Assembly: GCA_947297555.1 (NCBI GenBank)
Contig: CAMYTM010000001.1
Span: 1 to 43,995 of the forward strand
Source: an uncultured Mycoplasmatota bacterium
GTDB lineage: Bacteria > Bacillota_I > Bacilli_A > RF39 > UBA660
Length of the DNA: 43,995 nucleotides
Direction of reading: 5' to 3'
The translations under genes and the position numbers were made by a program. Within the stretch, counting starts at the first letter, position 1. Every line of letters begins with the position of its first letter. This document shows positions 18,510 to 36,379 of this stretch, piece by piece. The notes beneath the pieces are model-generated. The model was not told the DNA's origin. It made no database searches and was given only the letters and a program-made list of their open reading frames with translations.

Positions 18510-19568
18510 ATGAAATATTATTACAAGAAAAAACATGAAAAAAAGCAAGAATGGTTGGCTAGTTATTGGGTAAAACTTACTATGTTTATAATTGATAAAA
18601 TTTTAAAACAAGGAAAGGGAACTTTTAATGTAATTCATTATTTTGGAGATTTTCCAATGACAGTGAATTACGGTTTTGATACAAATTCTTTTTCTCTAGG
18701 ATTTCAAGCACAAGTTGAAGGCTGTGATAGAACTTATAGGCTTAATCCACTATATATTCTTTCTTATTTATTTGAATGTGATGATAAATGTAATTTGGAT
18801 GATTATTATGAAAGTGATGAAATAAAAGAACATGAACCTAGAATAATTCGTTTTATAAGGAAATATAATCCAAGTATTAAAGAAGTATCAAAATTTAGTT
18901 TTGCAAAACAATTACATACAGAATATAGCAATAATAAAGATGTATATTGCAAAGAAACAGGCTCGTTCATTAATACTCCTGAAAATAGAAATATTCTTCC
19001 AAGAGTTGTATATTTAAAATTTATGGCTAATTTAGAACACCAATTATATGATTTGATGTCATGGGATGCAGTTTATAAATATGCTTTAGAATTTTTAAGA
19101 GGAGATGTTGAAACTGGATTGATACCAGTAGAATTTGAACTTAATGGTGAATATAAGTATGGACATAGAAAGGCAACAATTGATTTTAATAATTTATGCC
19201 CAATTTTAACTGAAAGTGGAGAATATTTAATAGAGGAATATATGTGTTCCATTAAACCGAATGATTTTTTTTTAGATATGGTTTCAGAAAAATATCCTAG
19301 TGTCTTAAAAAATCATAGGATTACATTTGAAGAATTTCGAAAAAAAGTTATAGTTTACAATAGAGAACAAGGTAATAAACAGTTTCAAGATTGGTGGAAA
19401 GTTTTTAGGGGGGAAGGGTATCCAATCCCTGTGGGGTTGGGTGGTATTCCTCATCAAGTAATTTGCTATCCATTATTTCCACATATAGATTGTTATTTAG
19501 ATTATTGTGCAAAATTGAATATCCCATTTATAGATAGTGAAGAGAAAGAAAGGGGAAATTCGAGATGA
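18510..19568 (+). CDS. hypothetical protein, no recognisable domain (gene A of a candidate two-gene system)
   Basis: The ATG at 18510 has SD 'gaaggggg' 9 nt upstream (the track start at 18471 lacks an SD). 352 aa. Its stop overlaps the next start (ATGA at 19565-19568). Confidence 0.6.
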   Translation: MKYYYKKKHEKKQEWLASYWVKLTMFIIDKILKQGKGTFNVIHYFGDFPMTVNYGFDTNSFSLGFQAQVEGCDRTYRLNPLYILSYLFECDDKCNLDDYYESDEIKEHEPRIIRFIRKYNPSIKEVSKFSFAKQLHTEYSNNKDVYCKETGSFINTPENRNILPRVVYLKFMANLEHQLYDLMSWDAVYKYALEFLRGDVETGLIPVEFELNGEYKYGHRKATIDFNNLCPILTESGEYLIEEYMCSIKPNDFFLDMVSEKYPSVLKNHRITFEEFRKKVIVYNREQGNKQFQDWWKVFRGEGYPIPVGLGGIPHQVICYPLFPHIDCYLDYCAKLNIPFIDSEEKERGNSR

Positions 19569-21022
19569 ATTTTGATTTATATAAAGGATATCGTGGTTTA
19601 TTAGATAAGTCTTTAAATGGACAAAAAGTAACTTTAAATGAACTTAGGAAGTTTTTTCAAAAGGCTAATTTTGGTGGAAAGTTTTATCTTCAAGCCTTAG
19701 TAGTTAATCATTTAATGTTTCTAAACGGAGATAGGAATTTTAATGATTTTTCGTTGTTATATAGTTGTTTTGAAGAATCTATAAAATTTTGTTATGAAAA
19801 AGAAGATACTTTAGAAGAAATTAAAGGTTTAAAGGAGTTAAATTCTTCAAAAATAGGTAGTTTGTTTGCTGAGTTTTTATTTTCAGGATATCTTCCAATG
19901 CTATTTTATTTAGATACATACGGCATTATTTCTAAAATACCAACAAATGGTTTTATAGTAGATAATTATATGCGTCCAATAAATACAAGAGTGTTATTTG
20001 AAAATGCAACAAAAAATGATAAATCTTTGAAATTCAATGAGTTTATAAATATGATGTTTATGTATTTTTCTGAAAATCTTGATAATAGTATAATTAAAAT
20101 TAATTCTTCAGGAGAGTATCGTAATATTATACAAGTTTGTGACAAAAATTATAATTATCAAGCAACTATAAAGTCAGATGAAAAACCACCAGTTGGAACA
20201 TTTATAAAAGATAAGAAATACATTGTTAATCCTGCAGTAGGAAGAGCACAAGAAAAAAGAAGCATGGAAATTTCGCTTTTAATGCCTGAAACATCTTCTA
20301 TTTTGGTTGGGCCTGCTGGTGTAGGAAAAACTGCTATTGTTGAAGGATTGAATTATGATATTCAAAATGGTAAGATTACAAATCGCTTAAAAGATAGGCA
20401 AATATTAATGACCTCTAGTACTGAATTAGTTTCAGGCTGTTCTTTGGTAGGACAATTAGAAGATAGATTTTTAAAATTATGTCAATATGTAAAAAGACAT
20501 CCAGAAGTACTTGTGTATATTGATGAAATACACACTTTGATTGGTGGCGGTAGAGGAAGCGGCTCTACAAATGAACTTTCTAATATGATGAAACCATATC
20601 TTTCAAGTGGAGAACTACAATTAATTGGTGCTACTACTAAAGAAGAATATGAAAAATATTTTTTAGGGGAATCTGCTTTCAGAAGAAGATTTGAACCGAC
20701 TATGATAGATGAACCAGATGAAGAAACTTTAAAATGGATTTTATCAAATTGTGTTGAAAAACTTACAAAACAAACTGGAATATCTTTTGAAAGACCAGAA
20801 GAAATGGAAATATGTTTAGCAAAAATTATAGAATATTCTAATGCTGAATTTAGAAATAAAGAAGATTATCGTTATAATCCAGCACTTGCAATAAATATTT
20901 TGAAGAGAATATTTGCTACTGCTGAATATAATACTCATCAATTTATTGGAAAAGATGATATTGCTATTGGTATAAATGATTGCAGTTATACACTTGCACG
21001 AGTAGATAGCAAAAAGTTATAA
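19565..21022 (+). CDS. stand-alone Clp/Hsp100 D1-like AAA+ ATPase with unknown ~235-aa N-terminal domain (gene B)
   Basis: 'VGRAQEKRSMEISLL...ILVGPAGVGKTAIVEGL', 'VYIDEIHTLIGGG', 'LQLIGATTKEEYEKYF...AFRRRFEP' are colinear with the ClpA/ClpB/ClpC D1 module. There is no second AAA module and no Clp_N domain. Confidence 0.75.
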   Translation: MNFDLYKGYRGLLDKSLNGQKVTLNELRKFFQKANFGGKFYLQALVVNHLMFLNGDRNFNDFSLLYSCFEESIKFCYEKEDTLEEIKGLKELNSSKIGSLFAEFLFSGYLPMLFYLDTYGIISKIPTNGFIVDNYMRPINTRVLFENATKNDKSLKFNEFINMMFMYFSENLDNSIIKINSSGEYRNIIQVCDKNYNYQATIKSDEKPPVGTFIKDKKYIVNPAVGRAQEKRSMEISLLMPETSSILVGPAGVGKTAIVEGLNYDIQNGKITNRLKDRQILMTSSTELVSGCSLVGQLEDRFLKLCQYVKRHPEVLVYIDEIHTLIGGGRGSGSTNELSNMMKPYLSSGELQLIGATTKEEYEKYFLGESAFRRRFEPTMIDEPDEETLKWILSNCVEKLTKQTGISFERPEEMEICLAKIIEYSNAEFRNKEDYRYNPALAINILKRIFATAEYNTHQFIGKDDIAIGINDCSYTLARVDSKKL

Positions 21023-21126
21023 TATGTCTGAAAACTAACTTTAAGACAAGTTAGTAACACACTATGATATTGACAAGCCAATAACGAGATGTGCAAAGGG
21101 AGATACCCTTTTGAACCCCCTTTTAA

Positions 21127-21170
21127 GCAATAACTAAACAAGCTTTCGCAAGTAAAGTTATTGCCTTTTT
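21127..21170 (+). terminator. terminator-like hairpin downstream of the AAA+ gene
   Basis: Stem 'gcaataact' (21127-21135) / 'agttattgc' (21156-21164) followed by 'cttttt'. Confidence 0.4.
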
Positions 21171-21298
21171 ATTTGTATAAATACAAATAAAAAGAAAAAA
21201 GACTATCGCCAATAACACTAGCTAAAGCAACAAAACTTGCCCCGTCTTTTTTATGAAAATAACCTTAATGCTAAAGTCTAACGACTAAAGCAAAAAGG

Positions 21299-21907
21299 TT
21301 ATTTTTCTTCTTCTATAATGTTTCCTGTTAAGGTATTATATTTAACATTAGATTCAATTTTCATTTTTGGAAATACACCACTATCATATTTAGGATATTT
21401 ATCCTTATCTAATTTTTCTAAGTTAGGTCTAATTAAAGTCATAACTTCCTTTAGGTTATCTAAAATCTCATCCATAGAAATTTTTTCTCTTTTTTCAATT
21501 TTAGATAATTCTATTTTATCAATTATATCAGCTATAATGCCTTTACAAGCAAAAGCATTTTTTCTTCTTTCTTCTATATCTTCTAAAACATCAAAATAAA
21601 ATTTTTCATAAGATTTAATTTGTTCTTGATAATCAGCAGTACTTCTTTTTTCGGATAGATCCATACCCCAATTAATATCTATATCATTATATCCTGAGAG
21701 TTCCATTAATTTTACTAAACTTAAATTTAAGTTTTCAGCAATTCCTTTTAAATATAAAACATTTGGCTTTAATCTTTTTCCTGCTTCAATTCTTGATACT
21801 TCAGCACAATCCATATTAGATTTACGAGCAAGTTCTCTTTGCGAGATACCAAGTTTTTCTCTTGCTTCACTTATTGTTTTTCCAAGTTCAGTAGTATTTT
21901 TCTTCAT
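21299..21907 (-). CDS. XRE-family HTH regulator with unknown C-terminal domain
   Basis: An internal ATG at 21907 with SD 'aagaggtg' gives 202 aa beginning 'MKKNTTELGKTISEAREKLGISQRELARKSNMDCAEVSRIEAGKR' (HTH_XRE). The longer track ORF would run through the divergent promoter. Confidence 0.75.
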   Translation of the reverse strand: MKKNTTELGKTISEAREKLGISQRELARKSNMDCAEVSRIEAGKRLKPNVLYLKGIAENLNLSLVKLMELSGYNDIDINWGMDLSEKRSTADYQEQIKSYEKFYFDVLEDIEERRKNAFACKGIIADIIDKIELSKIEKREKISMDEILDNLKEVMTLIRPNLEKLDKDKYPKYDSGVFPKMKIESNVKYNTLTGNIIEEEK

Positions 21908-21989
21908 TAATAAATACACCTCTTTTTCTTTTGTTAAAGAAAGTATAACATATTGTGCTGTAAAAATCAACAATTTAGTAATTATTATG

Positions 21990-22018
21990 TTGACAAACTC
22001 AATATACGATGTTATACT
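21990..22018 (+). promoter_or_regulatory. sigma-A promoter driving the rightward module of element 1
   Basis: TTGACA (21990-21995), 17 nt, TATACT (22013-22018). A leader hairpin 'ttttgatg-taaaact-catcaaaa' follows at 22028-22050. Confidence 0.55.
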
Positions 22019-22060
22019 AGCCTCAGTTTTTGATGTAAAACTCATCAAAAGAAAGGAGGA

Positions 22061-22324
22061 ATGCTTATAAGGAAGTTTAAGATACAAGAGAGCGTTTGGA
22101 AAGATAAAAGAATTCCAAAGGAAGCCAAGTATATTTACTCTTATATTTATTCAAAAGGATTTGTGAGAATCATAACTGATATAAATATAGGAGAAATACA
22201 ACAAACTATTAAAATTAAAAACAAAGGCTTACAAAATAATCTTGAGATATTAGAGCAATACAAATATCTAATCTACCAAGAATATGCTAATGGGATGTAC
22301 ACAATAAATCTACTAGGGTGTTAA
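22061..22324 (+). CDS. small hypothetical protein (possible winged-helix)
   Basis: 87-aa ORF divergent from the XRE gene. GGAGG lies only 1 nt from the ATG, so the start is uncertain. Confidence 0.45.
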   Translation: MLIRKFKIQESVWKDKRIPKEAKYIYSYIYSKGFVRIITDINIGEIQQTIKIKNKGLQNNLEILEQYKYLIYQEYANGMYTINLLGC

Positions 22325-22530
22325 ATAACTCCTAGTAGATAAGGTACAGTAAGATTAAAGGCTTATGTTAGTACTTATTCTATAAAGAATATAGAATGAA
22401 CTTTGAAATAATCCGAAGGAAAGGATTTAAAATAATGTTCCAGGGGTTTTTATACCCAAAATTACGAATTGCTAGAGAATATTGGTATGGCTTTAAAGGC
22501 ATTTTATCGCAGTTCCTAGAATAGTATTAA

Positions 22531-22962
22531 GTGACCAAACTTGTTCGCAGGAAGGATAAATTAGTGTATGGAATCATTAATTCATTATCAAATAAGAAAG
22601 AATATTGCTATGCTAGTAATCATTATTTTTCTAAAGTGTTAGGTGTGTGTACAAAAACAATTTCTAATTCTATTCAAAATTTAGCGAGTAGGAATTATAT
22701 TTATATTAAATATGTGGATAACCAAAGACAAATTTATATAAATGAAGAGATTGTTAGAGAAGAAAATGCTAAGGTAGTAGAAAAGAAGTTCTATGATAAC
22801 ATAGAAAGAAATTGCCAATATAAAAGAAAAGAATTTATAAAAGATAATAAAAATAAGAATGATGTTCCTTATTGGTTAGAACATTCGGAAGTTTGTAAAA
22901 GTGAAGAAATGAGTTTAAACGATAAGGGAGAATTAGAAAGTATTATGAAAAAATATAAGTAA
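22531..22962 (+). CDS. helix-turn-helix protein, paralogue of 35808-36338
   Basis: 'EYCYASNHYFSKVLGVCTKTISNSIQNLASRNYIYIKY' aligns with 'GYCWATNDFFSDRFNVSKQTISKSISSLSNYGYIVLKY' in element 2. GTG start. It lacks about 20 N-terminal residues relative to the paralogue. Confidence 0.6.
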   Translation: MTKLVRRKDKLVYGIINSLSNKKEYCYASNHYFSKVLGVCTKTISNSIQNLASRNYIYIKYVDNQRQIYINEEIVREENAKVVEKKFYDNIERNCQYKRKEFIKDNKNKNDVPYWLEHSEVCKSEEMSLNDKGELESIMKKYK

Positions 22963-23040
22963 AATAAGGAGGATTGATACATGGTTAAATTTTACGGAGG
23001 ATTCTATTTATAATTAGAATAATAAAGGGGGTTATATAAT

Positions 23041-23250: not shown

Positions 23251-24849
23251 ATGGAAAAGGTAGGTGTATATTGTAGACTATCTGATGAAGATAGAAACAA
23301 AAAAAATAAAAATGATGATAGTGAATCTATTGCTAATCAAAAAAGTATGCTTTTAAAATATGCTCTTGAACAAGGTTGGGAAATTGTTGATATTTATTCA
23401 GATGATGATTTTTCGGGAGCAGGTACCTTTAGACCTGATTTTGAAAGAATGATTAAAGATTGTGAAAATGGAAGAATTAATATAGTTCTTTGTAAAACAC
23501 AAAGTCGTTTTTCAAGAGATATGGAAGTGATTGAGAAATATCTTCATAATAAGTTTGTTGAGTGGGGTGTAAGGTTTGTTAGTATTGTAGATAATGCTGA
23601 TACTAACAATGAATCCAATAAAAAATCAAGACAAATTAATGGACTTGTAAATGAATGGTATTTGGAAGATTTATCAAATAATGTTAAGAAGTCATTAAAA
23701 AATAAACGAGATGATGGACTTTATATGGGAAGTTTTGCTCCCTATGGTTATTTGAAAGACCCAAATAATAAACACAAGTTAATGGTTGATGAAGATGTTG
23801 CTTATATTGTTAGAGAGATATTCCAAAAATATAAAGATGGGATAGGGTATCATAAAATTGCTATGGACTTAAATGCAAGAGGAATATTGTGTCCTTCACT
23901 TTATAAAAAATCAATAGGAAGTAATTTTATTTGTGCTAATCGCCAAGGTACAGGGACTTGGACTTCTGATACTATTGCTAAAATTTTAAAAAATGAAACT
24001 TATATAGGTAAGCTAGTACAGGGAAAAAGAACAAGTGTTAGTTACAAGAATCACAAGTCAAAAAAAGTGCCAAAAGATAAATGGTCGGTTACGGAAAATG
24101 CTCACGAGCCAATTATTGATAAAGAAACTTGGTATTTAGTACAAAAAAGATTAGGCAAAAATGAGTGTCCATCTAAAAATGGCGAAATTCATATGTTAAG
24201 TCAAAAAGTTTATTGTGCTGATTGTGGAAAAATTTTTATGAAAAATGTATTTAATGTAAGTAGTAAAGGAAATACAAAAGTAAAAAAGGCTTATCTTCAA
24301 TGTAAGGGACATAAAAAGTATCATGTTTGCGATAATAATAAATCTTTTCGTTTAGATATATTGGAAGAGTATTTGTTAAATGCAATTAATGAGCTACTAA
24401 AAAAATGTAATGAAGAACTTTTGAAAAATGAATTTACAAAAGAAATGGATAGGAAGTCTAATCAAGATATAAGAATCACAAATCTGAATAAAGAAAAAGC
24501 AAGTTTTGAGAAAAAATTAAGTGAGAGTAAATTGTATTTTAAGACTTTGTACGAGGATAAGTTAAAAGGTGTTATTACGGAAGAAGATTTTACAATGTTA
24601 CGAGGCGAGTACTCAAAAGATGTAGAAAGTTATCAACTAAGACTTGAAGAGATTAACATTGAACTTGATGAGATGAATACAAGAAAAGATAATTCAAAAG
24701 ACATTGAGAGCATACTTAAGAAATATAAACATATTGATAAACTTAATAAAATAATTGTAGATGAGTTTGTAGAAAAAATCTATATAGGAACTTTAGATAA
24801 AGAAACAAAATCAAGAGAAATTCGGATTGAATGGAACTTTGATTTATAA
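23251..24849 (+). CDS. large serine recombinase (element 1)
   Basis: 532 aa. Resolvase-type N-terminus 'VGVYCRLSDED' (catalytic Ser), recombinase domain 'APYGYLKDPNNKHKLMVDE', Cys-rich zinc ribbon 'YCADCG...LQCKG' and a C-terminal coiled coil. Confidence 0.9.
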   Translation: MEKVGVYCRLSDEDRNKKNKNDDSESIANQKSMLLKYALEQGWEIVDIYSDDDFSGAGTFRPDFERMIKDCENGRINIVLCKTQSRFSRDMEVIEKYLHNKFVEWGVRFVSIVDNADTNNESNKKSRQINGLVNEWYLEDLSNNVKKSLKNKRDDGLYMGSFAPYGYLKDPNNKHKLMVDEDVAYIVREIFQKYKDGIGYHKIAMDLNARGILCPSLYKKSIGSNFICANRQGTGTWTSDTIAKILKNETYIGKLVQGKRTSVSYKNHKSKKVPKDKWSVTENAHEPIIDKETWYLVQKRLGKNECPSKNGEIHMLSQKVYCADCGKIFMKNVFNVSSKGNTKVKKAYLQCKGHKKYHVCDNNKSFRLDILEEYLLNAINELLKKCNEELLKNEFTKEMDRKSNQDIRITNLNKEKASFEKKLSESKLYFKTLYEDKLKGVITEEDFTMLRGEYSKDVESYQLRLEEINIELDEMNTRKDNSKDIESILKKYKHIDKLNKIIVDEFVEKIYIGTLDKETKSREIRIEWNFDL

Positions 24850-24907
24850 AATATAACCTATAATTTTAGCAAAAGAAGTAATTTTTGGGGAATTCAGTTT
24901 CAAGCCA

Positions 24908-25139
24908 TGGTGGTACTGACCCTGGGACTATTGCAAATGGAATAACAGAAAAAGAATATACATTAAAGATAAGTGAATATATTCATAATCGTTTGGATGA
25001 TTTAGGAATCGAAAATAGTATGACAAGAACTACAGATGAAACTTTATCTCCTGATGTTAGACCAGGTAGAGCACAGAGTTTTTATGGAAAGGGTAATGAT
25101 GTGATTCTTGTGTCTAATCATATAAATGCAGGAGGAGGT
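24908..25139 (+). CDS. split Amidase_3/LysM gene, segment 2 of 4
   Basis: 'GGTDPGTIANGITEKEYTLKISEYIHNRLDDLGIENSMTRTTDE...VILVSNHINAGGG' is the central Amidase_3 domain. The track ORF 24885-25169 is this segment plus element-derived head and tail. Confidence 0.85.
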
Positions 25140-25196
25140 AATAATCATTGTGTAACAAAGTATGTATAACAATTAAAGCCGAAAATATAATAAGAA

Positions 25197-25544
25197 ATGA
25201 GGATTAGTTATAATATGAGTTACCCAAAAGAAAATGAAATAATGAATGGAGATATATCTGATGAAGAATTTAATGAGAAATATTTGCCATTTTATGATAA
25301 TTTCAATGATTATATGGTTGGGTTTGTAATACCAGATGCAGTAGCATTTTATATTGTAAATAGCTATTTAAGAGGATGCTTAGTTGATAGTAAATTATAT
25401 AATCATATTAATTCTGCAGTAGATATTTTTAATTATAGATGTGATATAGATGTTATAATTCCATCTATAGAAAAGATATTAAACATAAAATATAATCTTA
25501 AAATTACTGGAAGAAATCCATTAAAACTAGAAAAATATTATTAA
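25197..25544 (+). CDS. hypothetical small protein
   Basis: 115-aa ORF. The ATG at 25215 has a better SD ('gagga'). No recognisable domain. Confidence 0.45.
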   Translation: MRISYNMSYPKENEIMNGDISDEEFNEKYLPFYDNFNDYMVGFVIPDAVAFYIVNSYLRGCLVDSKLYNHINSAVDIFNYRCDIDVIIPSIEKILNIKYNLKITGRNPLKLEKYY

Positions 25545-25611
25545 AAATTTAGCACTGTCAACATTGATGGTGCTTTTTTGTATGGTATAATAATTTAAGA
25601 GAGGTGGTAGT

Positions 25612-28600
25612 ATGAAACCAGAAGAATATTATAAGGTAATAAGTGATGAGCTGGCTAAAATTAAAGTGTTAATTGACACAGAAAACAGTATAAATTTGCT
25701 CGATAAAAACATTTTTTTAGAGGATATACTAGCTAATATACTAAATATCATATATGGTTTATCTCTGGTTAATACGAATTTTAATATTAGTAACTATCCA
25801 TCTATTGACTTAAAAGATGAAATTAATAAAACTGCTGTTCAAGTCACTACAAATGTTACTAGGATTAAAGTTCAAAATACGTTGGATACTTTTTTTAAAA
25901 AAGGATATGATAAAACTTTTGATAGGTTGTTTATTGTTGTGTTTGATAATCATTCTTACAGAGGAGAGTTTATTTTATCAAGTAAATTTAATTTTAACAA
26001 GGACGATAACATAATTACTTACGAAAAACTATTAAAAATTATTAAATCTTTAGCTGACGATAAATTAAAAAGAATATATGACTATATTGATATAGCATTA
26101 AAGGAAAACATTTATAATTTATACTGGATGAAAAAAAATACAATTAAATCATTAAATAATTTGGACAAAAGATACAATAGAAAGCTAAATGTTTTTAATG
26201 AAGAAACAAATAAAATTAAGATGTTTTTTTCCCAAGAAGATTGCAAAAAAGAAATAATTAACATGATAGAAGCAATAATTATCCTTATTGAAAATAATGA
26301 TATTAAAACGAATTTTAAAATTAATGAAATAGTTAATGATTTTACATTAATTACAATAAATGAAAAATTAGAAGCATTATCTAGACTAGAGAAATCAGTA
26401 TGTAAAAACTTTGAAGAGAAAGGAAATGATTATTATGATTATAATAAAATACATAATTTTGAAACAGAATATTATTTGTTACTTGAAAAATTAAACAATT
26501 TAATAGCATTATATTTTTCAAAAGTTATTATATATAGTGGAGTAGCTGGTATTGGTAAAAGCCATACATTAGCATCCTTTGTTAACGAAGACTATATCTC
26601 TAAAAATTTTCCTGCATTATTAGTATTGGGACAAGATTTTAGTGATGGTAGCAATATAGAAAACCAATTTTGTGAAATAACATCTGGGAAAAATAATTTT
26701 GATGAATTGTTATTTTATTTAAATGAGTTAGGAAGAGTAAGAAACATTATAGTACCCATAATTATTGATGGTTTAAACGAAAGTAATGATAATAGTATAT
26801 GGAAAAAGGGATTAAATAATTTTATTAATGAAGTAGTAAAATATTCAAATTTAAAATTAGTATTATCTGTTAGGGAAACATATTTTGAATTCTGTATTCC
26901 AGAAGAAGTAAAGAATAGAAATGGAATTTTGGTATATAATCATGAAGGTTTTAATGGTAATAGTATAAAAGCTATAGAGGAATTTTTTGAATTTTATGGC
27001 ATTGATATTCCTATATTTCAAATTATACATAATGAATTTAAAAATCCATTGTTTTTAACAACATATTGTAATATTGTCAGCAAGTATAATATACAGATAA
27101 ATGAAAATGAATATAAAAATTTTATACAAATATTTCAAATGTACTTATATAAAATAAATGAAATATTTGTTGAAAAGTACAATTTATTAAATAAACCTAA
27201 TATTATTAAAGAAGTTTTGAATAACTATATACAAAAATGGGTAGAAAATAATAAATCTATAACTGAGAAAGAGTTTTTAACTCTTCTTAGTGAAATTAGT
27301 GAATTATATGATATAAGTAAAAGAGAAATACTTAACTTTGTTATTGAAAATGGATTGTTTTATAAGGAGAGACGATTTAATGAAGAAATTATTGTATTCA
27401 CATATGAAAGATATGAAAAAATCTGTTTAGCAATGTATTTATTAGAATCTATAAATTCAATTGATGAATTAAAACAATCAATAAATGATGGATTATTAAA
27501 AGAATATGTTGATTCATCAGATAAATTTGATAATGGAATATTAGAGGAATTGATAAATATTATTCAGGAAGATTTTAAAGTTGATTTTGTTAGTATTATT
27601 TCTTTTGACAAAATTAAATTTGACTATTTTATTAAAAAAGATTATATAAAAAGCCTTTTATGGTTCAAGGGACAATATGACATAAATATCATTATAAATA
27701 ATATAAAAGAATTATATAAAGATGAAGATTATGCTAATGAAATTATTGATGTATTCATAAAAATGTCATATTTAGAAACTAATCCATTAAATATAAAAAT
27801 ATTAAATGAATATATGTTAAAGTTATCAATGCCACAACTAGATTATAATTGGTCTATAGTTATAGATTCTTATTATTCTGATTTTAAAAAAGAATCAATT
27901 GATAATATTATTAATTATTGCTTAAATTATGGTAGTGAATATTTGAATGATAATACTATATATTTATTATCAGTATTATTTAGTTGGCTTTTAAGTTCAT
28001 CAAATAGATATTTAAGGGATATATCAACTAAATCCTTAACTAAATTATTATTAAATAATCATAAAGTATCTGTAGAATTACTTAAGAATTTTAAAAATGT
28101 TAATGATATGTATGTGTTGGAAAGAATAGTAGCAGCAATATATGGAAGTATAATAAGAAGTTCTAATAGTAATAATATTGAAGAATTATCTCATGAACTT
28201 TATAATGTAATTTATAAAAATGAAAAACCTATTGATAATGTAGTAATAAAAGTATACTCAAGAAAAATTTTTGCTTATATGAAAGAAAAATATCAGATAA
28301 GTCTTTATGACAATATAGAAAATGAAGCCAAATCAGAATGGTATCAACATCTACCTACTAATGATGAAATTGATAAATATGATGTTGATTATAAAGATGA
28401 GAATGTTGATAAAAGAAAATATTCTAATTCTGCAATAATTCATTCTATGGTAACTGAATATGGTAGAGGAACTAGTGCTTATGGAGATTTTGGAAGATAT
28501 GTATTAGGGTATTTTTTAAATCCATTTGCGTATGTGGTAGAAGATGTACAATTATTAGCAAATAAGGCAACAGAAAGAGTTTTTGACTATGGATATGATT

Positions 28601-29655
28601 ATAAATTATTTGGTAATTATGACTCTGCTGTTAAATATAATCAACATCGTCATGAACATTCAACTGAAAGAATAGGAAAAAAGTATCAATGGATAGCAAC
28701 ATATGAATTATTATCAAAACTATATGATAACTTTATTCCACATTATGATGTATATGATGATGATATAATTGATTTTGATAATAGAGAATATTTTGACAAA
28801 GATCATAAAAGGACTTTTGATGAATCAAGTATTCGATATGTAAAATATAATTTAGAAGAGGAGTTTAATAAACTGCTAACAATTGATACAACAAATTTTA
28901 TTTTAGAACAAGGCGACAAGAAAAATTATCTTGATAATAATAATTTTGATATTAATAATGAAGAAAACTATTCTGAATATGTTGTAAAAGACATTAATAA
29001 TATTAAATATATAAGCTTATTTAATTTATTCTCAGCTGAGGATAGAAACTTTAATTTAAAAAATGTTGATAGAAATTCTTTAACTATTGCGTGTACAGCC
29101 TTTGTATATTCAGATAAAGAAAAACTAGAAAAAAGTGATTATAAATATTATTCACAAGGTACTTATAATGAGACATTTAATATACAATTATTTGATATTC
29201 CCCAATCATCAGAATATAAATTAAATTATGATAGGAAATATCAAAATCAGGATTTACAAACTAGTTATAAGACATGCTATGAAGAATACATATGGGAAAA
29301 AGAATATGATGAATCAATCAGAAATCCGATTAAAATTTTAGTTCCGCAAAAATGGATTATTGATGATTTTTGTTTAGAACATAGAAATGAAGGAGAATGG
29401 TATAGAGATAATGAACTATTATGTTTTCAGCCATTATTGAAAGATGGTGAACAAGAATTAGTTATAAAATATGATGAATTTATTAAATTTTTAAAAGGCA
29501 AAAATTTAAATTTAGGTTGGACTATTTATTGTGAAAAATCTCATAATAATAATTATGTTTCTTGGAGAGTAAATTTATTTTATGATTTTAAAAATATGAA
29601 ATTTAACAATGAAGTTTATGATAAGGAAGAATGGGAATCTCGATCCTTATGGTAA
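25612..29655 (+). CDS. 1,347-aa STAND/NACHT-like P-loop NTPase with N-terminal SMEK-like domain and long C-terminal region
   Basis: SD 'gagaggtgg'. Walker A 'GVAGIGKSHT' at about aa 310 and NACHT-style Walker B 'IIIDGLNES'. The N-terminal 'NIFLEDILANILNIIYGLSLVNTN...YPSIDLKDEINKTAVQVTT' resembles the SMEK-type N-terminal domain (from memory). The C-terminal ~900 aa has no recognised catalytic motif. Confidence 0.7.
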   Translation: MKPEEYYKVISDELAKIKVLIDTENSINLLDKNIFLEDILANILNIIYGLSLVNTNFNISNYPSIDLKDEINKTAVQVTTNVTRIKVQNTLDTFFKKGYDKTFDRLFIVVFDNHSYRGEFILSSKFNFNKDDNIITYEKLLKIIKSLADDKLKRIYDYIDIALKENIYNLYWMKKNTIKSLNNLDKRYNRKLNVFNEETNKIKMFFSQEDCKKEIINMIEAIIILIENNDIKTNFKINEIVNDFTLITINEKLEALSRLEKSVCKNFEEKGNDYYDYNKIHNFETEYYLLLEKLNNLIALYFSKVIIYSGVAGIGKSHTLASFVNEDYISKNFPALLVLGQDFSDGSNIENQFCEITSGKNNFDELLFYLNELGRVRNIIVPIIIDGLNESNDNSIWKKGLNNFINEVVKYSNLKLVLSVRETYFEFCIPEEVKNRNGILVYNHEGFNGNSIKAIEEFFEFYGIDIPIFQIIHNEFKNPLFLTTYCNIVSKYNIQINENEYKNFIQIFQMYLYKINEIFVEKYNLLNKPNIIKEVLNNYIQKWVENNKSITEKEFLTLLSEISELYDISKREILNFVIENGLFYKERRFNEEIIVFTYERYEKICLAMYLLESINSIDELKQSINDGLLKEYVDSSDKFDNGILEELINIIQEDFKVDFVSIISFDKIKFDYFIKKDYIKSLLWFKGQYDINIIINNIKELYKDEDYANEIIDVFIKMSYLETNPLNIKILNEYMLKLSMPQLDYNWSIVIDSYYSDFKKESIDNIINYCLNYGSEYLNDNTIYLLSVLFSWLLSSSNRYLRDISTKSLTKLLLNNHKVSVELLKNFKNVNDMYVLERIVAAIYGSIIRSSNSNNIEELSHELYNVIYKNEKPIDNVVIKVYSRKIFAYMKEKYQISLYDNIENEAKSEWYQHLPTNDEIDKYDVDYKDENVDKRKYSNSAIIHSMVTEYGRGTSAYGDFGRYVLGYFLNPFAYVVEDVQLLANKATERVFDYGYDYKLFGNYDSAVKYNQHRHEHSTERIGKKYQWIATYELLSKLYDNFIPHYDVYDDDIIDFDNREYFDKDHKRTFDESSIRYVKYNLEEEFNKLLTIDTTNFILEQGDKKNYLDNNNFDINNEENYSEYVVKDINNIKYISLFNLFSAEDRNFNLKNVDRNSLTIACTAFVYSDKEKLEKSDYKYYSQGTYNETFNIQLFDIPQSSEYKLNYDRKYQNQDLQTSYKTCYEEYIWEKEYDESIRNPIKILVPQKWIIDDFCLEHRNEGEWYRDNELLCFQPLLKDGEQELVIKYDEFIKFLKGKNLNLGWTIYCEKSHNNNYVSWRVNLFYDFKNMKFNNEVYDKEEWESRSLW

Positions 29656-29685
29656 AAAATAATGATTAAAATTTACTGAGTTATT

Positions 29686-29721
29686 AAAAACAAATAGGCA
29701 AAAATTTTCCTATTTGTTTTT
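29686..29721 (+). terminator. rho-independent terminator after the STAND gene
   Basis: 13-bp perfect stem 'aaaaacaaatagg'/'cctatttgttttt' with a 10-nt loop. Confidence 0.7.
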
Positions 29722-29941
29722 AAATTTAATATAAAATAAAAAGGACAAAATTGTTCTTTTATTAGAGGTAACTTAGTAGTCTTGTACAATATATCAAGCA
29801 TGGTGTCTACACACCCTAAAAGCTTGTTAGGGAGTATCCCTAAAACCCATTACAAATTAGTCTCTGAAAGTTAATAAAATTTCTAAATATAATTGTGAAA
29901 AGGACATTTACTAAAATATAAAATATTAGTATAATATTGTT

Positions 29942-30544
29942 ATGAAAGTAAATGGTGGCTTTATGAGCAATGAAGATAAAATTAAAGATTATTTAGATAA
30001 AAATTATGGTTATATAACAACTTCTGAAATATTGAGTATGAATATTAGCAAACCTTTAATTAAAAAATATGTTGAAAATGGATTATTAAGAAAAGTTTCA
30101 CATGGCTTATACATAGATAGCAATTTATTAGAAGATGATGAATACATTTTTCAAAGAAGATATCCCGAGGCAATATTTTCATATAATACAGCATTATATT
30201 TTCTTAATTTGTCTAATAGAGCTCCACATAAAATTGAAATAACTTTAAGTAATAGAAAGAGAATTAGTTGTGATTATGAAGTACATTATATTTCAGATAA
30301 ATATTATGATATTGGCATTATTGAAATAGAAAGCATGTTTGGTAACCCAATTAGAATTTATAATGCTGAAAGGTCTATTTGTGATATGTTACGAAATGGT
30401 GATTTTGAATTAGAATTACAAAATACTATTCTTAGAAATTATTTTAGAAGTAAAGATAGAGATCTTGATAAGCTTTTAGAGTATGCAAAAATATTTAAAA
30501 TTTACGATAAAGTCAATACTTTAGTTGAGTATGAAATGGGTTAG
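29942..30544 (+). CDS. AbiEi-like (type IV TA antitoxin family) wHTH protein
   Basis: 'GYITTSEILSMNISKPLIKKYVENGLLRKVSHGLY' matches the AbiEi_4 N-terminal pattern. The start may be the ATG at 29963 (SD 'ggtgg'). Confidence 0.65.
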   Translation: MKVNGGFMSNEDKIKDYLDKNYGYITTSEILSMNISKPLIKKYVENGLLRKVSHGLYIDSNLLEDDEYIFQRRYPEAIFSYNTALYFLNLSNRAPHKIEITLSNRKRISCDYEVHYISDKYYDIGIIEIESMFGNPIRIYNAERSICDMLRNGDFELELQNTILRNYFRSKDRDLDKLLEYAKIFKIYDKVNTLVEYEMG

Positions 30545-30556
30545 GAGGTTTCTTAA

Positions 30557-31393
30557 ATGAGTGAAAAAGAATTAGATTCGAGTAATGTTGAATATACAAA
30601 AGAAATTAAGCCAGAAGGTTATGTAAAACAACTACAATGGGATATGGCTATTGGTCTTCAAGAAGTTGATAATTTAAAACCTTCTAAATATTTAGAAAAA
30701 TTATTAGAAGACAATGTAAGTGGTAAACTAACTATTAAACAAGTAGAAGAAGAATTAAGAGAATACTATATTGCAAAAGATAAAAAACAGGAATTAAATC
30801 ATAATGAATTAGAATGTGATTTTGTATCAACAAGAATTGTTGAATTGTTAGATAAAAATAATTTTGAATTATCAGTAGATTATTTAAAATATGTTCATAA
30901 ATATTTATTTCAGGATGTATATGAATTTGCAGGTGAATTTAGAAATATAGATTTTTCTAAACATGAAAAAATATTGAATAATGATTCAGTTGCTTATGGA
31001 GATTGCAAGACATTAAAAGAATCATTAGAATATGATATATCTTTGGAAAAAGAAAAGAATTATAAAAATATGAGTGTTGTAGAAGTGATAAATAATATCA
31101 CTAAATTCTCATCTAGCATATGGCAAGTTCATCCATTTAGAGAAGGTAATACTAGAACAACAGCATTATTTATAGAAAAATACTTAATTAGTTTAGGTTA
31201 TGAAGTAGATAATACTCTATTTAAAGATAGATCAGTTTATTTTAGAAATGCATTGGTTAGAAGTAATTATTTTAATAATTATTTAAATATTAAAGAAGAT
31301 AGTAGTTATTTAGTTAAATTTTATGAAAATTTATTATTAGGTAAGAATAATAATTTACATTCACAGGATTTAATTGTTAAAGAGTTATTTTAG
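30557..31393 (+). CDS. Fic/DOC family protein
   Basis: 278 aa. Fic motif '[12 protein letters not shown]', a variant of HxFx(D/E)GNGRxxR. SD 'ggagg' is 13 bp after the AbiEi-like stop. Confidence 0.8.
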
Positions 31394-31409
31394 AAGTGAG
31401 GTAATAGTT

Positions 31410-33284
31410 ATGGATTTTGATCAAATGAGTAAAGATGACTTGATTAATTATATAAAATCATTAAATGAAGAAAAATCAGGAAAATTGGGACTAATATGGG
31501 ATAGAGAAAAAGTGCCAGAAGATATTGTTTTGGAGTGCAACAAGAAAATTCCTGTATTAAAAAATATATCTGAAAAGAATATTATAACTTCTAACAATAA
31601 AAGTAATGATAATAACTTATTGATTGAAGGCGATAATTTTCATAGTTTAAGTGTTTTATCATATACACATAATGAAAGTATTGATGTTATATATATTGAT
31701 CCTCCATATAATACAGGAAGTGAAGATTTTGTATATAATGATAAATATGTTAATTTAGAAGATGGATATAGACATAGTAAATGGCTAAATTTTATGGATA
31801 AAAGACTTAAAATAGCAAGAAGACTATTAAAACAAGATGGCGTCATTTTTATATCCATTGATGATAATGAATATGCACAATTAAGATTATTATGTGATGA
31901 AATTTTTGGCGAAAATAATTTGCTTTCTACACACCATATGCAAGTTAGGTATGATAATAAAAGTCTAAATGAAGACAATGATTGGCAACCAGTAATGGAA
32001 TATGTTCTAATATATGCAAAAAGTAAATATTTATTCAAAGCAAATAAACAATACGAAGAATATGATCTTTCAAAATTTCAATATAAGATTACTGAACTAA
32101 CTAAAGGTACAACTTTAAAAATAGGTAATAAAACAGTTACTATCTTTAAAGATGGTGAATGGAAGATAGAAAAATGTAAAGGAAAAATCGGATTGTTAAA
32201 AGAAACTTGGGCATCAGGGAGTATAGTTAGACAAAGCGGTACTGCTGCAGAATTTTTGTCAAAATATTTGATTAAAAGAAAAGATCAAGATGGTTTAAAT
32301 GTTTTATATAAAATTCATAATATGGGAGAAGATGGATTAGGATATAGATATGTAACTGGTCCAAAGAGATATGATGCCATTCGTGGAAAGTTTTATTCTG
32401 GTGTTCCTTTAGATCGAATAAAGGAAATTGAAAATAATGGTTTCTCAAAAAAAACAAGGCCTATTTCAAATTACTATGATTTTAGTGCTGATTTTGGAAA
32501 TATACGAAATGAAGGTGGAATACCATTTAATAATGGCAAAAAACCAATTAAGATGTTAAAAGAGTTAATTAATTATCATCCAAATAAAAATGCATTAGTA
32601 TTGGACTTTTTTGCTGGATCAGGAAGTACTGGACATGCAGTATTAGAATTAAATAAAGAAGATGGAGGAGAAAGAAGGTTTATATTATGTACTAATAACG
32701 AAATTAGCTTAAAGGATGAAAAAGAATTTAAGAAAAAAAATAATATAAATGATGAAACTCTGATTGAATATAAGAAAAAAAATAATAAAAAATGGTTGAA
32801 ATTTATTGAAAAAAGGGGAATTTGTAATTCCATAACATATCCTAGAATTAATAATGTGATTAATGGATATAGAAGCAAAAAAGGATTAGGTGGAAATTTA
32901 CTATATTTTAAAACAGAATTCGTTGAAGTTAACGGCTCAAAAGACCAATTATATTATGATTTAACTGAAAAATGCATTCCAATGTTGTGTATAAAAGAAA
33001 ATACTCATGTTTTAGTTAGAAAAGATAACGAATATTGTATATATTCTAATGAAGAAAAGACAAAATATACTTGTGTCTATTTTGATGCTTTTGGAAATAA
33101 TTATAATAAATTTATAAATGATATTGAAAATATTTATGAATTTAAGGCATTATATATATTTACTTTAGGAAATGAAATAAATCAGAATGAACTAGTCGAT
33201 GTACACAATTATGAAGTGGAACCAATTCCATATAAAATTTTAGAGTTGTATAATAAAATAATTGATTTAAGCAGGGAGATATAA
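31410..33284 (+). CDS. mod: type III restriction-modification methyltransferase (Mod), N6-adenine beta class
   Basis: The ATG at 31410 has SD 'gtgaggt'. '[10 protein letters not shown]' (motif IV) precedes '[12 protein letters not shown]' (motif I). Directly followed by res. Confidence 0.8.
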
Positions 33285-33286
33285 TT

Positions 33287-35587
33287 ATGAAAGAATTAAA
33301 AAGATATCAGGAGCAAGCAATAAAGCAGTTGATAACAGCTTCTAAAATGTTTTTTGAAACAGATAACAATGAAACTATTGTGTTTCAATCACCAACGGGC
33401 AGTGGTAAAACATTTATGATGACTAATTATATTTCTGAAATTATTAGAGATACGCAGTTGAATTTATGCTTTTTATGGGTATCAATTGGAAGTGGAAATT
33501 TACATGTTCAAAGTTATAATAGTGTTAAGAAAAATATATCATCACTTGTTGATTGTAGTTTGTTAGAAGAAGACTTTTTTGGAAAAAGAAAAAAAATTAA
33601 CAAAAATGAAATAGTGTTTTTAAATTGGGAAAAGATAAGGCAAAAGGATGGGATAACAGGACAATACACAAATAATGTTATGAAGGATAAGGATGATATA
33701 AATTTTATAGAAGTTCTTGAAAATACACGAAACAATGATACAAAAATAATATTAATTATAGATGAAAGTCACAAATCATCTAATACTATAAGAGCGAGAG
33801 AACTTAGAGATGAGATAATAAAACCTTTCCTAACAATAGAGATGAGTGCTACTCCAGTACTTACTTCAGATATGCAAATGAAAGTTACCGTAGATCCAAA
33901 CAAAGTAATAGAAGAAGGAATGATAAAGAAAGAAATTATCATAAATAAAGATATATCATCAATATCTAATGATGATATATTCTCACAAAATTTAATTTTA
34001 GAAAGTGCATATCAAAAACGTTTATATTTGAAAAAAATGTATGAAAAACAAAAAGCTAATATAAATCCATTAGTGTTAATACAATTACCAAATTCAGATG
34101 CTGGTGAAATTAAGAAAAAAGCAGTTTTAGATTTTTTGGAAAGCAAAAATATAAATATTGATAGTGGGAAAATTGGTATATGGTTGACAGAAGATAAGAT
34201 GAATATTGAAAGTGAAGAATTAACTAAAAATGACAGTAAAGTAGAATTCTTATTATTTAAGCAAGCTGTTGATACTGGATGGGATTGTCCTAGAGCACAG
34301 ATACTTGTGAAATTTAGAGAGTCAAATAGCATTATATTTGAAATTCAAACTGTTGGAAGAATACTAAGAATGCCTGAAGCAAAACATTACGATTGTGACG
34401 ATTTAAATATCGCATATGTTTATACAAATATAAAATCCATCGAAATAAAAAAAGAGGTTTATAATCCTAATATCATAAAATCTATTTGTTCCAAAAGAAT
34501 TGAAAATTATGAAAATATCAAATTGAGATCATATTATAAAAACAGAGTTGATTTTGGTGATATAACTAGTGAATATACAATGTTTTTTGAACGTGCCTTT
34601 TGTAGATTTTTCAAAATAGATTATAAAGATAATGAAATCCCAAATTACAAGGAATCATTAAAAAAATTAATGCAGAATGGAATTAAAACTAATTATGATG
34701 AAATGGATACTATCCTAAATAATATAGAGCTAGAAACAAATAATATTGACTCGGGAATGGTTGTAAGTGAAGATAGTGTAGTGTATATGAAATTATCACC
34801 AGATGACTTGGATATTAAATATAATAAAATTTTATTAAAGAATATAGGGAACTTTTCTCCTAGTAGATCTATCTCTAAATTAAAAACAGCAATATTATAT
34901 GTATTTAGAAAATATTTAAATATGAAACCTGCAGATGGCGGAATAACACTTATTCAAAATTTAATTGTTAGAAATGAGGAAATATTTGAAAAAATTTTGT
35001 CATTGGCTTTGGATGAATATAAAAGTTTTCATGAAAAAGATATTGAATTAAAAAATCCCGGCAGATATAATGATGATTGGGAAATTTTAACTAGCAAAAA
35101 TTATAATCCTGAAACTAATGTTGAGATAAAATCTAAATTATCAATTTATCAACCACTGTACTTGCCTTGTGATAATAATGGGAAGGTTGATGAACTAGAA
35201 CTAAAATTCATAGAATATTTAGAAGAAAATAATGAATTTATTAAATGGTTTTGGAAGAATGGTGACGAACATATGGAATCAAATTTTGGAATTAGGAAAG
35301 AAAATGGTTCTACTTTTCAACCAGATTTTATTATTTCATTTGTTGATGGAAGTATAGGAATATTTGATACAAAAGCAATTGGATTTAATGAAAATGATAA
35401 TATAAGTAAATCTAATGCACTATATAAATATGTATCTGATGAAAGATTTAAAGGAAAGAACATAGTTGGAGGTTTAGTTGTGTATACATCACAAGGTTTT
35501 AGATATTTCAGTGAATCACAATACAAGAGTTATAATGAATCTCCAGAAAGTTGGATGGATTTTGATGACTTTTTTAAAAAAATCTGA
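33287..35587 (+). CDS. res: type III restriction enzyme Res subunit (SF2 helicase + PD-(D/E)XK)
   Basis: 'QSPTGSGKT' and 'IIDESHK' helicase motifs, 'DTGWDCPRA' and 'QTVGRILR', and a C-terminal 'FQPDFII...GIFDTK' nuclease-like motif. Starts 2 bp after mod. Confidence 0.8.
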   Translation: MKELKRYQEQAIKQLITASKMFFETDNNETIVFQSPTGSGKTFMMTNYISEIIRDTQLNLCFLWVSIGSGNLHVQSYNSVKKNISSLVDCSLLEEDFFGKRKKINKNEIVFLNWEKIRQKDGITGQYTNNVMKDKDDINFIEVLENTRNNDTKIILIIDESHKSSNTIRARELRDEIIKPFLTIEMSATPVLTSDMQMKVTVDPNKVIEEGMIKKEIIINKDISSISNDDIFSQNLILESAYQKRLYLKKMYEKQKANINPLVLIQLPNSDAGEIKKKAVLDFLESKNINIDSGKIGIWLTEDKMNIESEELTKNDSKVEFLLFKQAVDTGWDCPRAQILVKFRESNSIIFEIQTVGRILRMPEAKHYDCDDLNIAYVYTNIKSIEIKKEVYNPNIIKSICSKRIENYENIKLRSYYKNRVDFGDITSEYTMFFERAFCRFFKIDYKDNEIPNYKESLKKLMQNGIKTNYDEMDTILNNIELETNNIDSGMVVSEDSVVYMKLSPDDLDIKYNKILLKNIGNFSPSRSISKLKTAILYVFRKYLNMKPADGGITLIQNLIVRNEEIFEKILSLALDEYKSFHEKDIELKNPGRYNDDWEILTSKNYNPETNVEIKSKLSIYQPLYLPCDNNGKVDELELKFIEYLEENNEFIKWFWKNGDEHMESNFGIRKENGSTFQPDFIISFVDGSIGIFDTKAIGFNENDNISKSNALYKYVSDERFKGKNIVGGLVVYTSQGFRYFSESQYKSYNESPESWMDFDDFFKKI

Positions 35588-35807
35588 TATAATTAAATTA
35601 GGGTACGAGGAGTGTGCTCGGAAAAGTCGACTTTATTAAAGGAAGTTTATGCAATGTTCTTAATAAGAACTTAACAAGAATGAAGTGCCAAAATTAAAGG
35701 GAAGTACTAGAGTATTTCTAGAATTGATGTACTATTCTTTGTTCAGTTCTTTTTCTTATGCTCTAAAATACTGACAAATAATAGACTATTAAGGTAATCT
35801 TATATCA

Positions 35808-36338
35808 ATGAATATGGAAAGAAATATTGAACCTTTTATTAAATTAGTTTTCCCAACAAGTTTATTGGGAGATAAGAATTTAACATCATTAGAAAGATTA
35901 CTATTAATTTACATTTTGTCACTTTGTAAGAAGTATGGATATTGTTGGGCTACTAATGATTTTTTTAGTGATAGATTTAATGTTAGTAAGCAAACAATAT
36001 CAAAAAGTATAAGTAGTTTATCTAATTATGGTTATATTGTTTTAAAGTATGATAAGAAAGAAAAGAATAATTCAAAAAGAAAAATCATGATGTCAGGGGT
36101 ATTCAAAAAAAGAATATCAGATATACAAGAAAATCTTAATACTAGTATTCAAGAAAACTTTAAACAATATAATAAAAATAATAATATAAGAAAAAATATA
36201 GGACCTGTTATAAAGTGTGATGAAGAAGGAAATATCATATCTTGGAATAATAAACCAACAATATCAGAACCTATGAGTGAAAAAGATGTTAAAGAATTAG
36301 AAGAATTAATAAATGAAATAACAAAAGGAGATGAATAA
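35808..36338 (+). CDS. helix-turn-helix protein, paralogue of 22531-22962
   Basis: See the alignment given for 22531. It holds the same position (two genes upstream of the recombinase) as in element 1. Confidence 0.6.
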   Translation: MNMERNIEPFIKLVFPTSLLGDKNLTSLERLLLIYILSLCKKYGYCWATNDFFSDRFNVSKQTISKSISSLSNYGYIVLKYDKKEKNNSKRKIMMSGVFKKRISDIQENLNTSIQENFKQYNKNNNIRKNIGPVIKCDEEGNIISWNNKPTISEPMSEKDVKELEELINEITKGDE

Positions 36339-36379
36339 TTAATTGCTTAACAAAGTCATACATTATAGAGAGGTGACTT

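Follow-up and report, generated by a model that had tools for sequence, protein, structure and literature searches.

Avs2 (AVAST type 2) proteins are the most widespread terminase-sensing, NLR-like receptors of bacteria, and the diversity and modular swapping of their effectors are well documented. Here we describe a gene, termed SMEK-Avs2, that in all likelihood encodes a stand-alone antiviral STAND NTPase (NLR-like receptor) of this family whose effector is an Mrr-like, PD-(D/E)xK-type nuclease module known as SMEK. The gene lies in a stretch of 43,995 nucleotides from an uncultured Mycoplasmatota bacterium (contig CAMYTM010000001.1 of assembly GCA_947297555.1, positions 1 to 43,995), the whole of which we refer to as the window.

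Among the described Avs2 proteins, EcAvs2 from the Gram-negative host E. coli, solved by cryo-EM together with the PhiV-1 terminase (PDB 9o4e), is a single-protein system that binds the ATPase domain of the phage large terminase. It holds a bridging ATP via T1128, R1130, R1132, D981 and E1364, contacts the terminase via E1362, E1444, E1462 and W1266, and tetramerises, whereby its N-termini are drawn together, as is also the case for the Vibrio Avs2-trypsin protein (VcAvs2); its own effector is uncharacterised and non-enzymatic-looking. KpAvs2 of Klebsiella pneumoniae combines an Mrr-family nuclease with a helical bundle, a STAND module and the Avs2 sensor, brings about abortive infection via non-specific DNA degradation, and depends on an accessory protein, Avap2 (DUF6375), to which Avap1 (radical SAM) may be added. 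A helical extension has been published for both EcAvs2 and KpAvs2. Every Avs2 protein tested to date (EcAvs2, KpAvs2 and VcAvs2-trypsin) recognises terminase, and the type of sensor is clade-specific. Two receptors of other Avs types, EcAvs4 (Mrr nuclease, portal sensor) and SeAvs3 (Cap4 nuclease, terminase sensor), have the same tripartite plan, and in both tetramerisation activates an N-terminal PD-(D/E)xK nuclease.

SMEK has been described in a different setting, as the Mrr-like nuclease effector of clade S2B short prokaryotic Argonautes (pAgos). Guided DNA cleavage has been reported for the SMEK-APAZ/short-pAgo heterodimer, a system now named SPARMA, in which a guide-RNA-loaded short pAgo together with APAZ acts as the sensor and detects nucleic acid. 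The effector domain of the Mrr-APAZ pAgo system of Kordia jejudonensis is available as PDB 26bh, under the name given by its depositors, Mrr domain. A literature search combining SMEK with STAND or Avs terms yielded ranked results without any paper containing SMEK.

SMEK-Avs2 shares with EcAvs2 a homologous STAND ATPase, TPR-like sensor and C-terminal domain (CTD), a similar P-loop and Walker B context, and the organisation as a single protein, but differs in carrying a SMEK nuclease-type domain and in its low-GC setting, with closest relatives that are Clostridia-like among the matches listed. It resembles KpAvs2 in joining a nuclease-type domain to a helical bundle, a STAND module and the Avs2 sensor, but lacks the accessory neighbours of that system. 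With SPARMA it has the effector domain family in common over its whole length, both proteins keeping E, NxN, DLxD, Q(V/I)T(T/S) and K, and in both the effector would be expected to be activated by sensor-driven oligomerisation, whereas the sensor of SMEK-Avs2 is a STAND NTPase that would respond to a phage protein. The sensor and nuclease families of EcAvs4 and SeAvs3 differ from those of SMEK-Avs2, and the PADLOC Avs3 and Avs4 models do not match it.

The SMEK-Avs2 gene and its family

The span under study (25197-29721) runs from the start of a 115-amino-acid open reading frame (ORF) to 66 nt past the Avs2 stop codon. The gene and the parts of its product are as follows.

25612..29655, + strand: SMEK-Avs2 gene, 1,347 aa, predicted single-protein antiviral STAND system (ORF call, PADLOC, NCBIfam, PDB 9o4e, 22 homologues)
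25612..26106, + strand: predicted SMEK (Mrr-like, PD-(D/E)xK-type) effector domain, aa 1-165 (Pfam, PADLOC, 26bh profile, AlphaFold2 (AF2) model, conservation)
26107..26511, + strand: helical linker or bundle from effector to ATPase, aa ~166-300 (helices 170-299 in the AF2 model)
26539..26568, + strand: Walker A (P-loop) GVAGIGKSHT, aa 310-319, aligned with the EcAvs2 P-loop GKAGIGKSHL
26758..26784, + strand: Walker B IIIDGLNES, aa 383-391, aligned with VFIDAINEG of EcAvs2
27700..29652, + strand: C-terminal helical-repeat (TPR-like) sensor and CTD, aa ~700-1347, with an approximate boundary (alignment with 9o4e; limits by analogy with VcAvs2)
28666-28698, + strand: ERIGKKYQWIA, aa 1019-1029, identical in EcAvs2

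A 4 kb ORF in DNA of 19-26% GC puts a chance origin far out of consideration (GC of the window around the locus, 0.19-0.29). Public data contain 22 homologues, full-length or nearly so and 49-98% identical, all 22 with PF21941, and in a 21-sequence alignment G310, A312-K316 and H318 of Walker A and I383, I385, D386, G387, N389 and E390 of Walker B are invariant. An earlier, preliminary description of this DNA, made from the sequence alone, had reported the 1,347-aa protein with GVAGIGKSHT, IIIDGLNES and 'RYLRDISTKSLTKLL' (aa 799-813), and all of these were located, with a distance from P-loop to Walker B of 73 residues instead of the ~80 given there. The tripartite plan that it proposed, as in Avs proteins, proved correct: an effector, then a STAND NTPase, then a sensor of helical repeats.

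Profile comparison identifies the bulk of the protein as Avs2. Six PADLOC Avs2 models match it (E = 1.7e-174 to 7.7e-74) and models of other Avs types do not; the best are PDLC02164 (E = 1.7e-174) and PDLC02162 (E = 1.1e-173), the latter aligning aa 173-1313 with model positions 205-1345 of 1379. NCBIfam Avs2 (NF041813) matches aa 179-966 with 511.5 bits (E = 5.8e-153), and a phmmer comparison with the solved EcAvs2 (E = 3.8e-70) aligns three blocks, aa 299-922, 978-1051 and 1224-1310, which take in the ATPase, the TPR-like region and the CTD. Pfam NACHT, NB-ARC and AAA_16 all fail to match at E <= 0.1, and PF05729 (NACHT) is present in distant relatives alone, at 20-27% identity, so that the accurate label is STAND, Avs2 clade, and not NACHT. 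Of the 'NACHT/STAND-like' NTPase originally proposed, the STAND half therefore stands, with strong matches in the profile searches that had been suggested as a check, and the NACHT half falls away.

A genome scan with the single protein as query returned no confirmed relatives; with an alignment as query it succeeded. In the scan of GTDB species representatives we confirmed at least 553 Avs2 relatives from many phyla (553 among the 600 pattern matches listed), and the closest among the matches listed came from an uncultured Clostridia metagenome-assembled genome (50%) and a Clostridium sp. metagenome-assembled genome (34%).

Exchange of the effector module

Comparison of the N-termini of SMEK-Avs2 and of the 80 nearest Avs2 loci (n = 81) placed the canonical Avs2 nuclease motif PD[GA]G.E...[WY]QAK in 39 proteins and SMEK_N in 7, with trypsin or SIR2 in a few others. 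An alignment of SMEK domains and one of canonical Avs2 nucleases show no profile similarity (hhalign probability 0.1%, E = 0.56), and we therefore conclude that the effector has been swapped; descent of SMEK by divergence from the usual Avs2 'Mrr-like' domain was ruled out by the same comparison. The module boundary falls at about aa 170, given that many Avs2 alignments start at query residue ~172 and that a shared LNNLGKRYNxxLNV motif follows just after. It is with this Avs2-wide motif (LNNL(D/G)KRYNxxLNV, aa 181-194), conserved in SMEK and canonical Avs2 proteins alike, that the helical linker starts.

The SMEK family amounts to 3,407 cluster representatives (50% identity) at E <= 1e-3 and 2,085 at E <= 1e-10. 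Within it the domain is strictly N-terminal, and the proteins fall into length classes of ~320, ~525, ~905 and ~1,230-1,450 aa. Two of the four sampled ~905-aa proteins combine SMEK with AAA_16 and TPR_12/TPR_10; like SMEK-Avs2 they join an N-terminal SMEK to a STAND-like ATPase and TPR repeats, but their ATPase and sensor differ (TPR_12/TPR_10, NPHP3-like) and are not Avs2. Avs2 was recognised in one of the seven long SMEK proteins sampled, and many further SMEK-led systems appear to exist. In the proteins sampled at ~320-365 aa and ~525 aa, SMEK is the sole Pfam domain.

A predicted nuclease domain shared with short Argonautes

The identity of the N-terminal domain is supported by several profiles. 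Pfam SMEK_N (PF21941) covers aa 10-144 (E = 1.1e-32, 113 bits against a cutoff of 27), NCBIfam SMEK_N gives E = 3.6e-23 (81 bits against a cutoff of 30), and the PADLOC Argonaute-associated model Aga_REase-PNTD1-PNTD2 covers aa 1-168 (E = 6e-30). The Kordia domain 26bh matches the single SMEK-Avs2 sequence at E = 7.8e-9 and a profile of ten SMEK-Avs2 N-termini at E = 8e-25, over residues 6-173 of 175 (168/175). The SMEK assignment, which the preliminary description had proposed, is thereby borne out, and the N-terminus maps to a defence effector, the SMEK of short pAgos, and not to a non-effector housekeeping family.

AF2 models of the domain, built on alignments of the window and database sequences, are confident (aa 1-165: predicted local distance difference test 87, predicted template modelling score 0.84). 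The order of their elements (helix 36-48, strands 53-55, 65-69 and 74-79, helix 84-96, strand 105-110) fits the alpha-beta-beta-beta-alpha-beta core of PD-(D/E)xK enzymes, and E37, D66, Q77 and K86 lie on the modelled elements where that fold would place them, an invariant E37 on the helix preceding D66/Q77-V-T79 and an invariant K86 on the helix following. E37, N54, N56, D66, D69, Q77 and K86 are conserved down to SMEK-Avs2 proteins of 21-32% identity and in the Kordia domain. SMEK can accordingly be described as a predicted PD-(D/E)xK-type nuclease domain, which gives a candidate function to an effector whose activity had at first been called unknown; the chemistry of this domain is the main uncertainty about SMEK-Avs2.

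The sensor and a model of its action

EcAvs2 contact residues were mapped onto SMEK-Avs2 through the phmmer alignment with 9o4e; four of the six mapped residues are conserved, and D981, W1266 and E1462 of EcAvs2 lie outside the aligned blocks.

EcAvs2 R1132: R1013, conserved
EcAvs2 E1362: E1229, conserved
EcAvs2 E1364: E1231, conserved
EcAvs2 E1444: E1308, conserved
EcAvs2 T1128: Y1009, not conserved
EcAvs2 R1130: Q1011, not conserved

By analogy with the Avs2 proteins tested so far, we reasonably infer that SMEK-Avs2 would sense the phage large terminase. The published Avs2 and SPARMA work suggests the remainder of a mechanism, namely its trigger, tetramerisation, nuclease activity and abortive outcome. 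In an uninfected cell SMEK-Avs2 would be an autoinhibited monomer. Upon infection, the TPR-like/CTD sensor would bind a conserved phage protein, for which the ATPase domain of the large terminase is the likeliest candidate, possibly with a bridging ATP, and the ATP-bound STAND module would tetramerise; the tetramer would gather four SMEK domains and so switch on non-specific DNA cleavage, destroying the cell and the phage genome ahead of progeny release. The defence-island and mobile-element context described below supports a predicted role of SMEK-Avs2 in phage resistance.

A single-gene system

The region ahead of SMEK-Avs2 contains one further ORF and two candidate regulatory sites.

25197..25544, + strand: 115-aa ORF, 67 nt upstream of SMEK-Avs2, no family match
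25551-25574, + strand: terminator-like hairpin and T-run (-12.9 kcal/mol, z = -3.5)
25564-25591, + strand: TG-extended -10 promoter-like site, overlapping the hairpin region, ahead of Avs2

The 115-aa ORF has no match in Pfam, NCBIfam, PADLOC or PHROGs, the Pfam search including DUF6375/Avap2 at E <= 0.1. A homologue (93%) stands beside the Avs2 gene of locus L005, whose product is 98% identical, the two loci being copies of one DNA module (6 kb at 97.3% identity), and a weak relative on the opposite strand occurs in L002, 1.3 kb upstream; at the SMEK-Avs2 loci L001, L006, L007, L009, L037, L071 and L086-L092 the ORF was not found. The hairpin is the one terminator-like site in 25100-30000 (0.3 expected). 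Together with the promoter-like site it suggests that Avs2 has its own transcription start, promoter-like matches in this AT-rich DNA being at chance level (60 vs 52.9). The preliminary description had suggested that the ORF may belong to the unit; found beside the nearest relative only, and separated from Avs2 by the hairpin, it does not appear to.

Across nine contexts no neighbour of SMEK-Avs2 is conserved, the flanks including AbiEi/AbiEii, HicAB, restriction-modification systems, tyrosine and serine recombinases and polysaccharide genes. The gene adjoins the 115-aa ORF and AbiEi and no homologue of Avap1 or Avap2, and the sole radical-SAM gene of the window (210..1046) is 24 kb away. The Fic gene that follows AbiEi was considered and rejected as a conserved partner: it accompanies SMEK-Avs2 in two arrangements, one in the window and L005 and the other in L001-L004, and is absent in L086-L092. 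Judged by gene content, SMEK-Avs2 is a single-gene system, independent of the genes around it.

Alternative explanations

Several observations weigh against reading SMEK-Avs2 as a terminase-sensing Avs2 receptor with a nuclease effector. Its NCBIfam Avs2 score lies below the equivalog cutoff of 1000 bits, so that PGAP would name the protein merely 'SMEK domain-containing protein'; we attribute the shortfall to the different N-terminal domain and the divergent CTD. The position of the canonical (D/E)xK lysine is Thr or Ser across the SMEK family, the Kordia domain included (position 79 of Q77-V-T79, in all but one SMEK sequence compared), so that nuclease chemistry would need K86 or another residue. 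Of the structural work that the preliminary description had proposed, the N-terminal models were confident, and Foldseek searches of the PDB with models of 300 aa and 165 aa gave no significant match in a library apparently without 26bh, so that sequence homology and topology are the basis of the fold assignment; PD-(D/E)xK nucleases occurred only among the weak hits, of which the best was the Shedu nuclease (E = 0.019-0.027), others being Bax1, XisH, Kpn2I, PspGI, Cap4 and Upx. In the sensor, two ATP-contact residues of EcAvs2 differ (T1128 to Y1009, R1130 to Q1011), and KpAvs2 is triggered in vivo by small non-terminase proteins (Ksap1/Ksap2) as well. Where the effector is concerned, these points could mean that an Avs2 sensor is joined to a SMEK domain that is not a conventional double-stranded DNA endonuclease and that has another substrate (RNA, single-stranded DNA or nucleotides) or serves as an oligomerisation or adaptor module recruiting a toxic factor. 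To QxT in place of QxK and the missing structural match to characterised nucleases may be added the hhalign result with the canonical Avs2 nuclease and the precedent of EcAvs2 for a non-enzymatic or unknown effector. Yet E37, D66, D69, Q77 and K86 are strictly conserved on a PD-(D/E)xK-like scaffold, published work reports guided DNA cleavage by SMEK-APAZ/pAgo and treats SMEK as Mrr-like, the 26bh depositors' name points the same way, and no conserved partner gene that might act as a downstream effector was found; we regard this alternative as distinctly unlikely.

An Avs2-like nuclease sensor might also have a natural trigger other than the large terminase, in the form of one or several other phage proteins, as KpAvs2 has in Ksap1/Ksap2. 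The low identity to EcAvs2, the two altered contacts to the bridging ATP and a CTD that aligns in part only (aa 1224-1310) would agree with such a trigger, whereas recognition of terminase by every Avs2 tested, the clade-specific nature of the sensor type and the conservation of several interface residues and of ERIGKKYQWIA favour terminase; a different trigger seems unlikely. A two-gene system, in which the 115-aa ORF would be an accessory factor analogous to the Avap2 of KpAvs2, we consider highly improbable, and the ORF was ruled out as an Avap2-like accessory for want of a family match and of conservation and on account of the hairpin between the genes. The two genes are neighbours on one strand, with 67 nt between them, and are co-inherited in L005, and ~5% of Avs2 proteins are published to require accessory proteins; but co-inheritance in L005 is that of one and the same mobile module, the ORF is absent from the many SMEK-Avs2 loci listed above, and the promoter-like site as well as the terminator-like hairpin lies between the genes. 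The preferred reading is of a stand-alone Avs2 receptor with a SMEK nuclease-type module.

A 14.1 kb mobile element within a lysin gene

SMEK-Avs2 is carried by a mobile element that interrupts a lysin gene.

25134..25159, no strand assigned: left end (attL), imperfect terminal inverted repeat GGAGGTAATAATCATTGTGTAACA (inverted repeat, L005, L093)
39226..39251, no strand assigned: right end (attR) (inverted repeat, L093 alignment, Amidase_3 continuation)
36549..38138, + strand: large serine recombinase of the 14.1 kb element (Pfam Resolvase, Recombinase and Zn_ribbon_recom)
38188..39150, - strand: 320-aa ORF, rightmost in the element, where AT content is highest (GC 0.19)
24885..25169, 39244..39624 and 42688..43276: pieces of the lysin gene, both junctions bridged by the intact homologues L093-L095

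The Amidase_3 domain is split, with profile positions 6-85 at 24885..25169 and positions 85-173 at 39244..39624. The element ends form inverted repeats (19/24 positions, 25134-25157 vs 39228-39251), L005 shares the element from exactly the left end (25134..25159) onward, and an intact lysin homologue, L093 (69% identity), aligns with window positions 24906-25142 and then directly with 39250-39553; the reading NAGGGDGAEV is continuous in L093 and L095. The split domain, the terminal repeats and the L093 junction together define an inserted element of 14.1 kb (~25140..39249), whose cargo is, in order, the 115-aa ORF, SMEK-Avs2, AbiEi, Fic (PADLOC PDC-S72), type III Mod/Res, HTH/DnaD_N, the large serine recombinase and the 320-aa minus-strand ORF, the last without a match in Pfam, PADLOC or PHROGs. 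The insertion site has been reused: in L097 the 'NAGGG' codons of a related lysin are occupied by a related recombinase, at the very codon used in the window, and in L099 the break falls at this residue too.

A second interruption of the same lysin gene lies at its first LysM repeat, where a 3.1 kb element (~39600..42687) brings in a NUDIX gene and another serine recombinase. A third insertion, near codon 10 and belonging to an element of >23 kb that leaves the window at its left edge, is probable: a third serine recombinase (23251..24849) ends 36 nt ahead of the lysin fragment, and homology to intact lysin genes begins only at ~24903, the window copy being without the 'MITMNYKIVIDPG' start. 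The three recombinases are mutually only 28-37% identical. Reconstructed, the lysin resembles Amidase_3 + LysM phage endolysins (33-35% identity, 98% coverage) and also matches PHROG endolysin families; the neighbours of its intact homologue carry no phage signal, and the lysin may be either of prophage or of cellular origin. An exact-pattern search of metagenomes for the empty attachment (att) site found none, and a protein-based metagenome scan recovered intact lysin homologues.

At locus L090 (5849..18047), a SMEK-Avs2 gene (49% identical) adjoins three tandem large serine recombinases and lies between a UDP-glucose dehydrogenase gene and another UDPG_MGDP_dh_C fragment, which suggests a similar cassette in a different host gene. 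The stacking of serine-recombinase cassettes in one lysin gene is the more unusual feature of the region.

Neighbouring defence genes

Defence genes near SMEK-Avs2 comprise AbiEi, Fic (PDC-S72), a type III restriction-modification system and AbiD.

29942..31393: AbiEi (PADLOC E = 1.8e-59), followed 12 nt later by the Fic protein (PDC-S72, E = 2.7e-81)
31374..35587: type III restriction-modification pair, Mod 636 aa and Res 766 aa, within the 14.1 kb element
3911..4840: AbiD
7574..13002: PDDEXK_1 protein and GajB-like UvrD helicase

The Fic protein stands where an AbiEii nucleotidyltransferase is usual after AbiEi, and the two genes may constitute a hybrid toxin-antitoxin pair; L088 and L089 have a classical AbiEi-AbiEii 3' of the Avs2 gene. 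A homologous Fic gene is found directly upstream of SMEK-Avs2 in L001-L004, and in the window the last 20 nt of the Fic gene are shared with the start of Mod. Defence genes also form an island on the left of the window (1..23000), which besides AbiD and the PDDEXK_1/helicase genes holds a trypsin-PDZ protease, DUF2130, a Schlafen/AlbA_2-HATPase_c_4 protein, DUF4238 and an AAA ATPase; after these come a minus-strand cI-like repressor and a gene resembling replication initiators.

Implications

The Avs2 family was already known, and PADLOC-type tools flag SMEK-Avs2 directly. What the locus adds is a clean case of an Avs2 sensor joined to the SMEK module of short Argonautes, and this illustrates how protein-sensing and nucleic-acid-sensing immunity share effectors. 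SMEK-Avs2 may also offer a protein-triggered system in which to address the activation of SMEK and its status as a nuclease.

Two linked readings go further and are, in our view, improbable enough to be offered as speculation: that SMEK has a distinct, oligomerisation-gated effector chemistry and is not a routine Mrr nuclease, and that the lysin gene is a dedicated landing pad for defence cassettes. The former is prompted by the absence of the canonical catalytic lysine together with ~3,400 clusters that have many different C-terminal sensors, and would make SMEK-Avs2 a tractable protein-triggered model for SMEK. The latter is prompted by the arrival in one lysin gene of two or more, probably three, unrelated serine-recombinase cassettes (two with defence genes, the third with a NUDIX gene only) and by the reuse of the 'NAGGG' codons as an att site in other metagenomes; were it true, excision could restore the lysin, in the manner of the intervening elements of sporulation genes. 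For the assembly of defence islands in low-GC Firmicutes, the stacked defence cassettes in one lysin gene may matter more.

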